IMG/VR virus record: IMGVR_UViG_2531839534_000003
Origin: a virus
Taxonomy: Duplodnaviria; Caudoviricetes
Reading direction: 5' to 3' (one strand)
DNA: 64,000 nucleotides
A program made the position numbers and the translations under genes. The notes under the pieces were generated by a model. The model was given only the letters and a program-made list of their open reading frames with translations. It was not told the DNA's origin and made no database searches. How positions within the stretch are numbered: the stretch's first letter is position 1; every line of letters starts with the position of its first letter. Shown in pieces: positions 29,146 through 57,279 of the stretch.

Positions 29146-29184
29146 TTACCCCTTAACACCAAATAAAAATTTATCACTTATAAT
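29146..29184 (+). promoter_or_regulatory. Transfer-regulon promoter, copy 1 of 7
   Basis: TTA CCCCTTAACAC-N12-TAT-N4-TATAAT. Confidence 0.75.
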
Positions 29185-29215
29185 GGTTCTATATTTTAGA
29201 AAAAGGAGAACACTA

Positions 29216-29482
29216 ATGGCAAGAAAAGATTTATCAAAAATTGATGCGGATCTTGAAACTGCAAAAGCAAAAGTAGCACTACTTGAAGAGGAAAGGAAAA
29301 AAGCTGAGGAAGAAAGCTTTCAAAAAATTGGTCAAGCATATTTTCAACTCAAGCGAAAAATGAATAAGACAATTACCCATAAAGAAGTTTTATCTTCAAT
29401 AAAACAAGAAATTGCTACACTAAAAAATGAGTCAAAAAATTTCCCAGCTGAAGTTCATTTGAGTGATAAAAGCGATCAATAA
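29216..29482 (+). CDS. Small coiled-coil protein beside oriT
   Basis: AAAAGGAG favours ATG 29216; 88 aa. Confidence 0.7.
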   Translation: MARKDLSKIDADLETAKAKVALLEEERKKAEEESFQKIGQAYFQLKRKMNKTITHKEVLSSIKQEIATLKNESKNFPAEVHLSDKSDQ

Positions 29483-29529
29483 TATTTTGAATTGATCTTA
29501 AATTGATAAAAATTCCAACTTTTATCCTA

Positions 29530-29800
29530 AAAAATAGTGTGCTATAAATCAATTAAAAGATGTGCTATATGAAAAGAGGGATAAAAAAAGTGTGCTCTAA
29601 CCTCTTTTTAGGGGTGTGCTATACTGACACACCTTGTGTGTCATAGGTAGGCTATGCCGAGAAAATTGGGGACACTGGAAACGTTGATACTATCAACATA
29701 TCCCGACTAGGGATATCGGTTTCCCTTATGCTCTTTTTTGACTTTAAACACAGATTAGACAATAGTCTATATCGATTAGTGTTTATGAGTTAAAAAAACC
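29530..29800. other. Putative oriT region
   Basis: Non-coding; TGTGCTA/TGTGCTC x4 plus dense inverted repeats, upstream of RHH genes and MobL relaxase as in pLS20. Confidence 0.65.
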
Positions 29801-29940
29801 GCAAAAATAGAAAATTTATTTTCGTACTGTTGCGAGGTTTAGGTTTTATTTTTTGCTTCTTTTTGCTTTTTCCTCGTGAAAAGAAAAAAGAAGGGTGCAT
29901 TTTTATTGTGCTACATTTTAGAAAATGGAGAAATCTTCAA

Positions 29941-30276
29941 ATGGTAAATATAAATAATAATGTGGAACTAAAAATTCGTGGTCTCGAAAAACAGGAAGTC
30001 GAATTTTTAAAATTACTTGCAAAGAAAAATAAGTTTTCTTCTCTAAACCAATTCTTAGTTTCAATTTGTCGAGAAAAAATAGAGGTTGGAAAATTAAATA
30101 GAGCAGAACATTTATATATTACATACTTGGAAAATATAAATCAATCCTCGAACTTTATTTTAAAACAAACTGAAAAACAAGTTAGACAACTTCAAGAATT
30201 TGAAAAACAAATGGATAGCTATGCTGATAAAATCTCAATGTGGTTGGAGTATGAAGGAGAGATAGAAGATGAGTAA
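29941..30276 (+). CDS. RHH-type relaxosome auxiliary protein
   Basis: ATGGAG RBS before ATG 29941; VELKIRGL..EFLKLLAKK..SLNQFL RHH pattern. Confidence 0.65.
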   Translation: MVNINNNVELKIRGLEKQEVEFLKLLAKKNKFSSLNQFLVSICREKIEVGKLNRAEHLYITYLENINQSSNFILKQTEKQVRQLQEFEKQMDSYADKISMWLEYEGEIEDE

Positions 30277-30619
30277 AAAAAACATCCTGATTCGAAATGT
30301 TCCTGAATCATCTTTCCATCAACTTCATATGAAATCAAATGATTACCATTTTACAAGCTTTAATGAATTTATGCTTTCTCAAATAGAAAATATTGTTATT
30401 AATGACGGTTTAAACTTGTATCAAAATAAATTTGCTGAGACTTTAGAAAAAATAGTTGAACAACAAAAAGAAATATTAAATAATCAAAAGCGAATTGAAA
30501 TAAATCAACTGGCTTTAAAAAATAAACAAATTATTGTTGAAGAATTGACAACTAATTGGCTTCATTTTATGGATGATATCGATGCGTTAGCTGCAGAAAG
30601 AAATGCAGGAGAGCTATGA
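30269..30619 (+). CDS. RHH-type relaxosome auxiliary protein
   Basis: NILIRNVPE..QLHMKS..SFNEFM RHH pattern. Confidence 0.65.
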   Translation: MSKKNILIRNVPESSFHQLHMKSNDYHFTSFNEFMLSQIENIVINDGLNLYQNKFAETLEKIVEQQKEILNNQKRIEINQLALKNKQIIVEELTTNWLHFMDDIDALAAERNAGEL

Positions 30620-54781: not shown

Positions 54782-54814
54782 ATAATTAAAGCCTCTACTG
54801 TAGAGGCTTTTTTC

Positions 54815-54853
54815 TTACCCTTTAATGCACCTAATTAAATTATCCCTTATAGT
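54815..54853 (+). promoter_or_regulatory. Transfer-regulon promoter, copy 6
   Basis: TTA CCCTTTAATGC-N12-TAT-N4-TATAGT. Confidence 0.78.
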
Positions 54854-54882
54854 GATGAAAATAAGGAAAGCAGGTGTAATTA

Positions 54883-56931
54883 TTGGAATTTAATACATAT
54901 TCTGATGTTGTCAAAAGTATCACAAAAGAATTTTGGGATCTTAATGGCGCTACGAATGGAAATATAACCGGGGATAACGGAAAAAAGCTAGCCGATTTTT
55001 ATTTATATTGGGGAAACTATCTTGAACCAACTCCGGCATTTTTAGCTTACCTCATGCAGCTTGTAGGAGGTATCGTTAAGGCCTTATATCTAATTTGTGT
55101 AAGTTTGGAACATGTTTTTAATAATATGTTTAAAGCATTTGGGTTATTTGGCTATTTAGGAGATCAGACAACTCTTTTTGGAAAATTGTTTTTTGGTTTT
55201 CAAGTTTTAGGAACAACTCTTTTTACGCTCATATTAGTAGTTAGTGCTATTACGGGTGTATTTTCAAAACCAGTAAAATATAAACATGTCATCACTAATT
55301 TTTTATTAGTAACTCTTGTGACCGCTGTTTTGCCTCTGGCCCTAACGACTATTTCTCAAACAGTCGCTCAAGATGCCCAATCAATTCAGACAATGTCAAC
55401 TGGTGACTCAAAAGAAAATTATTCCTCCTTGGCAATACAACCAATGAAAAATAATGTGGTTGATGTCAAAGTATTAATGGACAATGACTTTAATAAAGAG
55501 TTATTCCCGTTGGATAGTTTTGGTTTTATTAAACCATTAAAAGAAGGTTCTACTGCAGTCAATAATATAACGGATGATACGAAAAAAAGAGATACAACAA
55601 ACTTTGCAACTAAAATAGATTTTTCTGCAATGTATGGAGTATCTAATGAACAGTTATTAAAAGATTTGGAAAAGAAAAAGGAAGGTACGAAAGGACTTTT
55701 CCTTCATAAGCTAAATACAAATCAGGATGGTGTTGAAACAATAAATACTCATCGAGTAGTCGGTGGGCTAAATGCCTTTGAACCTGTTTATCTTCGTTAT
55801 AAAGTTAACTGGATAGGTATGATTGCTCAGTACCTTATCTTGATATCACTATTCATTGTCATGTCAATTAAGTTTGTTAAATCCGTTTTTGATATTTTTA
55901 TTGAATCACTTATATCTCCCATTCAAGGGTATAGTTCCCTCAACTCAAAAAAATACAAGGAATTATTACGAACAATAGGAGGAGGTCTTGCAGGTATTTT
56001 CTTTGAAATCGTCATTATGCGAATTACTTTGGAAATTTGTAGGGATCTCCCAACCTTATCTGTAACAGGTATTTCAAAACTTTCTGGAGGCTTCTTTGAT
56101 GGTCTCAACATGTGGGAACAATGTATTGCTGCATGTGTTGTCTATATTGCTTTATTTTTATCTGCAATGCAAGGTGTAACTATGATTGAACGTTGGCTTG
56201 GGGTTTCAACTGGTCATAACGAGACTGCACAACAATTGATAGGTGCTATGATGATGGGAAATGCTTTTGCGACAGGAGCTGGAGCTCTTGGCTCTGGGGC
56301 TTTGGCTCTTGCGACAGGAGGAACATCATTAGCTGCACAAGCTCCAGGAGCTATTGCAAGTGCTGGTAAACATGTTGCTAATAGTTTTGCGAATACTGCT
56401 GGTGGACTAAAAGGTATCTCTGACTCTATTAAAGATCAAGGCTTTGGCAATACTGTAAAAGGTGGGGTATCAAATGCTGTTGATCTTGCGACACTTATGG
56501 GTAATAAAGCTGGAGATAAAGTCGGCGGTGCAATGGATTCCTTAGATCAGAAAGCACAAGATGCTCATAGCTCGACCTATAATGCTTTGAAAAATAATGC
56601 TACAGTACCTGAGCCTGGCTGGGAGTCAGAAAACTTTGGACTAACTGGAGGAGAATATACACTTAATCCGAGTCATAATAATTATGGTGAAGATTTCTTC
56701 CCATCAGGAGGTGTTAGCGACCCTTCAGAGACTACAAGTCACTCAGTGGATACTACAGCACCAAAAGCACCAAAAATCGAACAGAAACAATCTCATCAGT
56801 CTACAAGTGGTTCCGAAATCAAGCGTTCCTTACAACAAATGAATTACATGCAACAACAAAGTCAACAGGCTGCTCAAAGAATGCAACAACCAAGTAGTGT
56901 AAAAGGAGTGGAAATTGATGAGGAAGAGTAG
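54883..56931 (+). CDS. VirB6-like polytopic conjugation membrane protein
   Basis: Multiple TMs around a large loop, Gly/Ala-rich cytoplasmic tail. Confidence 0.75.
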   Translation: MEFNTYSDVVKSITKEFWDLNGATNGNITGDNGKKLADFYLYWGNYLEPTPAFLAYLMQLVGGIVKALYLICVSLEHVFNNMFKAFGLFGYLGDQTTLFGKLFFGFQVLGTTLFTLILVVSAITGVFSKPVKYKHVITNFLLVTLVTAVLPLALTTISQTVAQDAQSIQTMSTGDSKENYSSLAIQPMKNNVVDVKVLMDNDFNKELFPLDSFGFIKPLKEGSTAVNNITDDTKKRDTTNFATKIDFSAMYGVSNEQLLKDLEKKKEGTKGLFLHKLNTNQDGVETINTHRVVGGLNAFEPVYLRYKVNWIGMIAQYLILISLFIVMSIKFVKSVFDIFIESLISPIQGYSSLNSKKYKELLRTIGGGLAGIFFEIVIMRITLEICRDLPTLSVTGISKLSGGFFDGLNMWEQCIAACVVYIALFLSAMQGVTMIERWLGVSTGHNETAQQLIGAMMMGNAFATGAGALGSGALALATGGTSLAAQAPGAIASAGKHVANSFANTAGGLKGISDSIKDQGFGNTVKGGVSNAVDLATLMGNKAGDKVGGAMDSLDQKAQDAHSSTYNALKNNATVPEPGWESENFGLTGGEYTLNPSHNNYGEDFFPSGGVSDPSETTSHSVDTTAPKAPKIEQKQSHQSTSGSEIKRSLQQMNYMQQQSQQAAQRMQQPSSVKGVEIDEEE

Positions 56932-56940
56932 GTCATTATC

Positions 56941-57219
56941 ATGGATTTTCAAGGAAAAGTAGTGGCAATAACTGGGAGCCTCAGACCCTTAGAAAGGTCA
57001 GAAGTTATTGAATTCATTAACGTGAAAGGTGGAACCTATCAAAACTATGTTTCTTCTCAGACAGATGTATTAATAATTGGCCACAGACAATTGACACTTT
57101 TTGAATTAGATCACTACTCAAAAAAATATGAAAAAGCAAAAATGTTAATCAATAATGGTCAGAACATTACCCTTATCGGTGAAGAAGACTTCTTTACATT
57201 TTTTCAAGAGTCCCTTTAG
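56941..57219 (+). CDS. Stand-alone BRCT-domain protein
   Basis: GKVVAITGSL..INVKGG..VSSQTDVLIIG..KYEKA..IGEEDF. Confidence 0.85.
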   Translation: MDFQGKVVAITGSLRPLERSEVIEFINVKGGTYQNYVSSQTDVLIIGHRQLTLFELDHYSKKYEKAKMLINNGQNITLIGEEDFFTFFQESL

Positions 57220-57240
57220 GGGACTCTTTTTTATGTCAAC

Positions 57241-57279
57241 TTACCCTTTAATGCGGTCCTACAATCTATATCATAGAAT
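57241..57279 (+). promoter_or_regulatory. Transfer-regulon promoter, copy 7 (follows terminator 57206-57232)
   Basis: TTA CCCTTTAATGC-N12-TAT-N4-TAGAAT. Confidence 0.78.

Follow-up and report, generated by a model that had tools for sequence, protein, structure and literature searches.

The DNA analysed was a window of 64,000 nucleotides (IMG/VR record IMGVR_UViG_2531839534_000003), most of which is occupied by a streptococcal conjugative transposon of the TnGBS1 family of ICEs. The element starts at position 21586 (+ strand) and continues 1740 bp beyond the window to position 65740 (L001:1740, L001 being the sequence beyond the window), with a total size of 44.2 kb. Both ends were delimited by the loss of homology with a near-identical element of genome G129, and terminal inverted repeats and a 9-bp target duplication are present. 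The right end lies 16 bp upstream of a host -35-like hexamer in front of ftsW, in accordance with the insertion specificity described for these elements (PMC3942029), 15–17 bp upstream of the -35 of a SigA promoter. The DDE transposase at the right end (L001:100-1416) belongs to the ISLre2/UPF0236 group (PF06782, 2e-26; NF033529, 2e-65). A TnGBS1-type conjugation module, syntenic with that of six other elements, was found together with plasmid-type replication and partition genes, including MobL, VirD4, a p028-family protein, a VirB4-like ATPase, a PriCT_1 Rep and ParA. The element is TnGBS1-like, as the original prediction had guessed.

Seven putative promoters of one type, all on the + strand, head the transfer operons. 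The first (29146–29183) follows an intrinsic terminator (29095–29129) and heads the whole relaxosome operon, composed of a 99-aa ORF, two RHH genes, a nuclease, a TraM-like 155-aa protein and the MobL relaxase (31916–34276). The second (34383–34420; terminator 34347–34372) heads an 86-aa ORF and the primase/polyvalent protein (34724–38326). The third (38357–38394) heads a topoisomerase (38385–40178) and a ClpB-like ATPase (40171–42015), and is preceded by a terminator-like hairpin (38333–38359) whose T-tail runs into the box. The fourth (42005–42042) heads a VirB2-like gene, a 364-aa protein, LPXTG adhesins and SSB (to 49740); it has no upstream terminator, and its box overlaps the stop codon of the Clp-like ATPase gene. 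The fifth (50998–51035; terminator 50966–50995) heads a 100-aa ORF and the VirD4 coupling protein (51301–54213). The sixth (54815–54852; terminator 54788–54816) heads a pLS20_p028-family (VirB6-like) membrane protein (54883–56931) and a BRCT protein, and is the only box kept in a mini-element of genomes G070 and G217. The seventh (57241–57278; terminator 57206–57232) heads DUF5592 (VirB3-like), the split VirB4-like ATPase (57615–60220), a CHAP/glucosaminidase hydrolase and a 192-aa protein. The gene labels of the original prediction were largely right, except that the first unit had been named only as an oriT-adjacent gene.

The shared exact-spacing architecture that had been noticed at these operon starts is real. 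The pattern CCCYTTAAHRC-N12-TAT-N4-TA gave exactly seven matches in the window, at 29149, 34386, 38360, 42008, 51001, 54818 and 57244, while none of 100 dinucleotide-preserving shuffles gave a match. These are the only matches on either strand of the 2,130,431-bp genome. A weight matrix built from the seven sites scored them at 38–45 bits, against 17 for the next best position in the genome, and an independent repeat finder recovered the same family. All seven sites are preceded by TTA or TTT, and all lie in front of a + strand gene with an RBS 20–32 nt after the TAnnnT hexamer. Six follow a hairpin plus T-tract on the same strand. No -35-like hexamer was found 16–18 bp upstream of any of the -10 boxes, and a sigma-70 consensus scan did not list these sites.

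To assess the conservation of this architecture, whose absence from homologous elements had been set beforehand as a condition that would refute the proposal, 401 genomes of the genus were scanned. The motif, its spacing and its operon-start positions are conserved in homologous elements, and the proposal passes this test. Hits formed same-strand clusters in other genomes, against 2 hits for the reversed control pattern. Five full TnGBS1-like relatives carry seven sites each at the same seven intergenic positions, and the element of genome G323 carries six plus a seventh with a spacer 1 nt shorter, although protein identity to the window element is only 30–70%. Identity to the window element is 76–80% over the box and about 70% from the TAT to the -10, against about 40–45% in the flanks. 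A logo of 51 sites showed a TAnnnT -10 (51 of 51 sites, as in 7 of 7 sites of the window, although this was partly imposed by the search pattern), a conserved TATC at -19 to -16 and the box at -42 to -31, with T-R-Y just upstream. The positions 17 bp upstream do not resemble the -35 consensus, and positions -15/-14 are Y and C, not TG. Position 43, 7 nt after the -10, is a purine in 50 of 51 sites and position 42 is T in 39 of 51, as expected for a start site. The near-identical element of G129 lacks the orphan gene 49883–50941 and carries a different adhesin block, yet keeps the flanking boxes.

A looser form of the design (TRYCCY in the same register) gave 14 forward, 0 reverse and 0 control hits in the 530-kb Ligilactobacillus salivarius plasmid CP104730, at operon starts of its TnGBS1-like module just behind terminator T-tracts. 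Further examples occur in other MobL elements. It was not found in pLS20 or in the host chromosome, nor in phage contigs, which gave only singletons, plus two contigs that are misfiled ICEs. A recurrent chromosomal match in other streptococci lies upstream of a minus-strand gene and is not a promoter of this kind. A weak hit at 65740 corresponds to the target duplication, and the terminal inverted repeats do not resemble the box. The known binding sites of ComX, CiaR, CodY and other streptococcal regulators do not fit the box either. Two other readings of the promoter were rejected: the conserved TAT as the real -10, with a TTGTCC-like -35 18 bp upstream, because position 2 of that hexamer is not A and the sites of the window lack the TTGTCC; and a MerR-type promoter with a 20-bp spacer, as the spacer has no dyad symmetry.

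The search for a regulator encoded by the element gave one best, but unproven, candidate. P0001 (21827–22339, +) is a 170-aa protein with an HTH at about residues 100–135, encoded by the first sizeable gene of the box-less rep operon. P0001-family genes are present in every MobL element where boxes were seen, and pLS20 has neither the protein family nor the boxes. However, this co-occurrence is confounded by shared ancestry, because all core transfer genes co-occur too, and a TnGBS2-type ICE has one near-identical box promoter but no P0001 homolog. P0001 has no Pfam, PHROG, NCBIfam or PDB match; its AlphaFold model is only moderate (pLDDT 70, pTM 0.44), and a Foldseek search against PDB gave nothing at E ≤ 0.001. 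Outside TnGBS1 the P0001-like gene sits immediately upstream of mobL, so it may simply be a relaxosome accessory protein, and its recognition-helix variants do not track the box variants. Among the unknown ORFs, Pfam, NCBIfam and PHROG scans gave no regulator, and profile searches against PDB sequences for P0001, a 134-aa family and the 155-aa family gave only chance hits. The 155-aa protein looks TraM-like, that is, a relaxosome protein and not a regulator; the 333-aa and 278-aa genes just before promoter 1 appear to encode membrane proteins, judged by reading their sequences; and a 303-aa minus-strand gene is accessory, shared only with genome G400.

The best explanation, to which a probability of about 0.55 is given, is that the seven sites are factor-dependent promoters, each restarting transcription of a transfer module directly after the terminator of the module before it. 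The sequence architecture, its uniqueness to the element and its conservation at orthologous operon starts of related elements are demonstrated by the data, while the mechanism, including activator-dependent transcription behind each box, is inferred from sequence alone. In this view, the host SigA RNA polymerase would read the TAnnnT -10, in which T at -12, A at -11 and T at -7 are invariant, and, because there is no -35 hexamer and no TG extension, would need a sequence-specific protein bound at about -45 to -31 (the T-R-Y-C-C-Y core plus the TTAA part), with a further contact at the TATC, in the manner of a class II activator or sigma appropriation. This would put all transfer operons under one switch and let modules and cargo be exchanged between terminator/promoter joints. 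The still unidentified factor is most likely encoded by the element, P0001 being the best candidate; from its position in the rep operon of TnGBS1, it could act as the early gene that turns on the late transfer operons. Circumstantially, in Streptococcus agalactiae NEM316 the long TnGBS2 operons have no detectable TSS in vitro, and the TSSs mapped inside that element are canonical TG-extended promoters (PMC4448216), which fits silent, activation-dependent transfer promoters.

The interpretation offered by the original prediction, either a class II activator site working with SigA or a dedicated sigma factor, is supported only in part. The sites behave as one promoter family specific to the element, and the idea that cargo can insert between a terminator and the next box also fits the data from G129. 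The activator option remains the best reading, as an inference, whereas the dedicated sigma option has no support and pLS20 itself does not share the architecture.

Among the alternatives, the one that survives best, although unlikely, is that the box is read by a conserved host factor, or by the host polymerase in a way not yet described, with element proteins only adding repression through separate operators. The box is almost invariant across elements whose proteins have diverged to 30–65% identity, while the partition-type operator differs completely between the window element and its relatives. The TnGBS2-type ICE and the mini-element also carry the box, the only protein family shared by all three element types being the DDE transposase, and TnGBS2 and several TnGBS1 relatives place separate palindromic operators just upstream of boxes. 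On the other hand, there is no comparable site anywhere in the host chromosome, the box variant changes with element lineage and host genus, and a constitutive host factor would make transfer genes constitutive in the window element, which has no extra operator at its boxes.

A dedicated, highly divergent sigma factor encoded by the element, reading the box as its -35 and either TATC or TAnnnT as its -10, is less likely. The near-invariant spacing (51 of 52 sites) and the asymmetric, two-part, non-palindromic recognition elements resemble sigma-type recognition, and P0001 has the size of a small sigma factor. However, six-frame searches with Sigma70_r2 (PF04542) and Sigma70_r4 (PF04545) found only SigA and one ECF-like gene, both far outside the element, no sigma family appeared in the Pfam, NCBIfam or PHROG scans of its ORFs, the model of P0001, the only early HTH protein, is a long helix plus a small resolvase- or homeodomain-like HTH and not a sigma-2 helical bundle, and the -10 keeps the housekeeping-type T-12, A-11 and T-7. 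Also improbable is that the box is an operator and the promoters are weak -35-less SigA promoters that fire when a repressor is lost. Gram-positive transfer systems are commonly repressor-controlled and the TnGBS2 operons are silent in vitro, but a repressor does not need an exact register with the -10 at more than 50 sites, the bare promoters would be very weak without a -35 or TG extension, and the box lies upstream of, not over, the -10 and the start. Finally, partition, replication or transposase sites or RNA elements are very unlikely, since, although one related metagenomic element has a 7-unit iteron-like array with the same core next to its first box, all sites share the strand of the genes, each lies between a terminator and an RBS and carries a -10 with a purine 7 nt downstream, none resembles the terminal inverted repeats, and there is no Rfam match.

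A broader possibility, not excluded but doubtful, is that the boxes define a previously unrecognised promoter class, spread through TnGBS1-like and other MobL conjugative elements of Lactobacillales and read by a new family of small, P0001-like HTH proteins that stand in for -35 recognition. In TnGBS1 the factor gene would have moved from the box-driven relaxase operon into the rep operon, making an early-to-late cascade, and TnGBS2-type ICEs and mini-elements with a single box would be wired to the same switch. TnGBS elements spread among group B streptococci, S. suis and oral and animal streptococci, and the regulation of their transfer is not understood. A single conserved promoter type in front of every transfer operon gives direct experimental handles, as reporter fusions or a bait for pull-downs, and a genome-wide marker for these elements and for satellites that may borrow the switch. 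It would also explain how the modules stay co-regulated while cargo and adhesin blocks are swapped between terminator/promoter joints. The looser version in lactobacilli and metagenomic MobL elements suggests that the control logic is older and wider than Streptococcus.

With respect to known systems, TnGBS1-like elements were already reported in L. salivarius (cited in PMC4165912). No published description of the motif was found, and none of the papers on TnGBS1 and TnGBS2 that were read, the key 2013 paper (PMC3624593) not being among them, mentions internal promoters or a regulator. In the AcaCD (IncA/C plasmids) and SetCD (SXT/R391 ICEs) regulons, one conserved box in the -35 region of many transfer operons likewise places the whole conjugation machinery under a single switch, and satellites can borrow the box. 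The hijack of AcaCD by SGI1 is described in PMC7826253. The one-box TnGBS2-type ICE and the mini-element could be analogous borrowers, but the likeness is functional only: no FlhC/FlhD-like proteins were found in the Pfam scans of the element, its host is Gram-positive, and its box sequence is different and asymmetric, with an unidentified regulator. In phage T4 middle promoters (MotA box plus AsiA, sigma appropriation), a housekeeping-type -10 is combined with a non-palindromic box that replaces the -35 at a fixed distance. No MotA or AsiA homologs were detected in this case, the box lies further upstream and an extra conserved TATC is present. The transfer gene families are related to those of the pLS20 conjugation operon (MobL/MobP2 relaxase, p028-family protein, DUF5592 and VirD4), but the transcription logic is the opposite, as pLS20 has a single promoter, Pc, under Rco, and reads through terminators with conAn antitermination.

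The pattern described in the original prediction was found exactly seven times in the window, always on the + strand and in the positions originally predicted, and none of 100 shuffled sequences gave a match. These seven copies were the only ones in the whole 2.13-Mb genome. A weight matrix separated them cleanly (38-45 bits) from the next best position (17 bits), and a blind repeat search recovered the family. Each site lies between the end of one gene block and the RBS of the next + strand gene. Six sites follow a hairpin plus T-tract, while the fourth one is the only site of the seven without a preceding terminator, and the stop codon of the Clp-like ATPase gene (ORF 40171-42015) lies inside its box (42008-42015). 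No -35-like hexamer was present at 16-18 bp and no TG extension was found. The leader after promoter 1 (29178-29210) is repeated at 82% identity in front of the first RHH gene (29900-29932), beyond the oriT-like region. The observation is real, highly non-random and evolutionarily conserved.

To delimit the element, it was compared with a 96-97% identical element of another genome (G129), which set its ends at 21586 and 65740. The ends are inverted repeats flanked by a 9-bp duplication, and the right end lies 16 bp upstream of a -35-like hexamer in front of ftsW, which is the published insertion signature of TnGBS elements (PMC3942029). The last gene encodes an ISLre2-family DDE transposase. 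From left to right, the gene content consists of a rep operon (the 170-aa HTH protein P0001, PriCT_1 Rep and small genes), two membrane proteins, the seven box-headed units (relaxosome/MobL; primase-polyvalent; topoisomerase plus Clp-like ATPase; VirB2-like, adhesins and SSB; VirD4; p028-family protein plus BRCT; VirB3/VirB4-like plus hydrolase), parA, an RHH gene and the transposase. It is therefore a TnGBS1-family ICE. In comparison with the element of G129, the adhesin block (43304-49305) is replaced and the orphan gene 49883-50941 is an insertion (49863-50953), both changes lying between intact box promoters. The left third of the window (1-20122), separated from the ICE by about 1.4 kb, is a prophage late region with a long ORF (6948-11744, 1598 aa), likely to be the tape-measure gene as inferred from its length only, other structural genes and a GH25 lysin at 19250-20122.

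To assess the conservation of the sites, 401 genomes of the genus were scanned, and the strict pattern was found in 22 of them. Hits form same-strand clusters in several genomes, while the reversed control pattern gave 2 hits in all. The elements of genomes G129, G318, G400, G024 and G272 are syntenic with the window element at 30-70% protein identity, and each one has seven sites at the same seven intergenic positions. The element of G323 has six sites, plus a seventh whose spacer is one base shorter. In alignments of the orthologous intergenic regions, identity to the window element was 76-80% over the box and about 70% from TAT to the -10, against about 40-45% in the flanks. Lack of conservation of the motif and its spacing in homologous elements, which had been set beforehand as a refuting condition, was therefore not observed.

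A logo was built from 51 distinct sites. Numbering from the first C of the box, the invariant or near-invariant positions are C2, T5 T6 A7 A8, T24 A25 T26, T31 A32 and T36, and the strong positions are C1, C3, G10, C11, A12, C27, C29 and T30, with T-(G/T)-T just upstream. These invariances are partly imposed by the search pattern, but the orthologous positions are not. Position 43, seven bases after the hexamer, is a purine in 50 of 51 sites and position 42 is T in 39 of 51, the usual pyrimidine-purine start, placing the hexamer at -12 to -7, the TATC at -19 to -16 and the box at -42 to -31. In most relatives the spacer is also nearly identical among the seven sites of one element, whereas in the window element the spacers differ, and that difference exposes which positions matter.

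Additional repeats were detected near some of these promoters. The TnGBS1 relatives of G318, G400, G024, G272 and G323 carry a 20-bp AT-only palindrome (core GTTATATAAC), which starts 36 or 55-60 nt upstream of the start of the box at promoters 3, 5 and 7, occurs twice before parA and occurs again near the right end. It is probably the operator of the partition RHH protein, which would link partition control to three transfer operons. This palindrome is absent from the window element, which has its own, different repeated operator built of AAACAT/ATGT units (54219-54252, 62472-62554 and 63387-63421), located at the lipoprotein, parA and RHH promoters and not at the box promoters.

With respect to the distribution beyond TnGBS1, a TnGBS2-type ICE of about 33 kb (G133, GCA_002096835.1), with a RepA_N Rep, ParA and the same transposase family, has exactly one near-identical box promoter. 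It lies about 185 nt inside the left end, upstream of a 60-aa ORF and rep, and is preceded by a 12-bp inverted repeat, just before it, and a 12-codon ORF. The adhesin genes of this ICE are nearly identical to those of the TnGBS1-type element in G323, which indicates module exchange between the two families. A mini TnGBS1-like element (G070 and G217) carries a P0001 homolog, Rep, an RHH pair, a lipoprotein, one box promoter in front of the p028-family gene and the transposase, but no VirD4, VirB4 or relaxase, and may be a mobilisable satellite.

Outside Streptococcus, the strict pattern gave only singletons, at about the control rate, in 338 other Lactobacillales genomes. On the other hand, a looser form does exist, with T-R-Y-C-C-Y in exactly the same register to the -10, followed by an A-tract instead of TTAA. 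In the 530-kb L. salivarius plasmid CP104730 it gave 14 forward, 0 reverse and 0 control hits, and these sites sit behind terminator T-tracts at operon starts of a module syntenic with TnGBS1. Similar sites occur in other MobL elements from genomes and metagenomes, one of them having the box as half of a palindrome. In a metagenomic MobL element (locus L124, 790-925), seven iteron-like TAGTCCCC-like units with the same core, spaced about 16 nt apart, lie immediately upstream of the first box-type promoter, and may be a high-affinity array for the putative box-binding protein. No such sites were found in pLS20, nor in phage contigs apart from misfiled ICEs.

The sequence architecture and its conservation are shown by the analysis, whereas transcription from these sites and the action of a regulator are inferred from sequence alone. 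The original interpretation was partly supported: a single regulon of factor-dependent promoters is well supported by sequence evidence, but the regulator remains unresolved. An element-encoded activator working with SigA is the preferred reading, with a probability of about 0.55, and its identification with P0001 is only tentative. The only experimental data found were those for TnGBS2 in NEM316, whose long operons have no mapped TSS in vitro and in which the TSSs mapped inside the element are ordinary TG-extended promoters (PMC4448216, supplements); this would fit silent, activation-dependent transfer promoters, provided that the NEM316 copy carries the box.

Among the genes upstream of promoter 1, P0001 is the only HTH protein besides Rep. 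Its close relatives are all streptococcal and are misnamed as a methylase. A profile search found 45 clusters of relatives, and the divergent members looked up all sit immediately upstream of mobL, in the order RHH, RHH, nuclease, TraM-like, P0001-like, MobL; the L. salivarius module is arranged in the same way. Every element with boxes belonging to the MobL group has a P0001-like gene, and pLS20 has neither the boxes nor the gene, although this co-occurrence is confounded by common descent. Against P0001, the TnGBS2-type ICE has a box but no homolog, the recognition-helix variants do not follow the box variants, and the predicted fold, a model of moderate quality, shows a long helix plus a small resolvase-like HTH with no significant structural match.

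A host factor is less likely but is kept in play by the near-invariance of the box across diverged elements and by the fact that only the transposase is shared by all three streptococcal element types; however, the host chromosome has no comparable site. A divergent sigma factor is improbable, since no sigma-70 region 2 or 4 was detected anywhere in the element and the genome has only SigA and one ECF-like gene of 172 aa (contig C1 of the host genome, 1399350-1399733), outside the window and about 0.56 Mb beyond the right end of the element.

Transfer regulons under a master regulator are already known, and the box-headed operons are considered to be of that type, the motif itself being the part for which no published description was found in the papers searched. 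To the known regulons of this type they add the point that a looser form of the motif extends to TnGBS1-like modules in lactobacilli and to other MobL elements.
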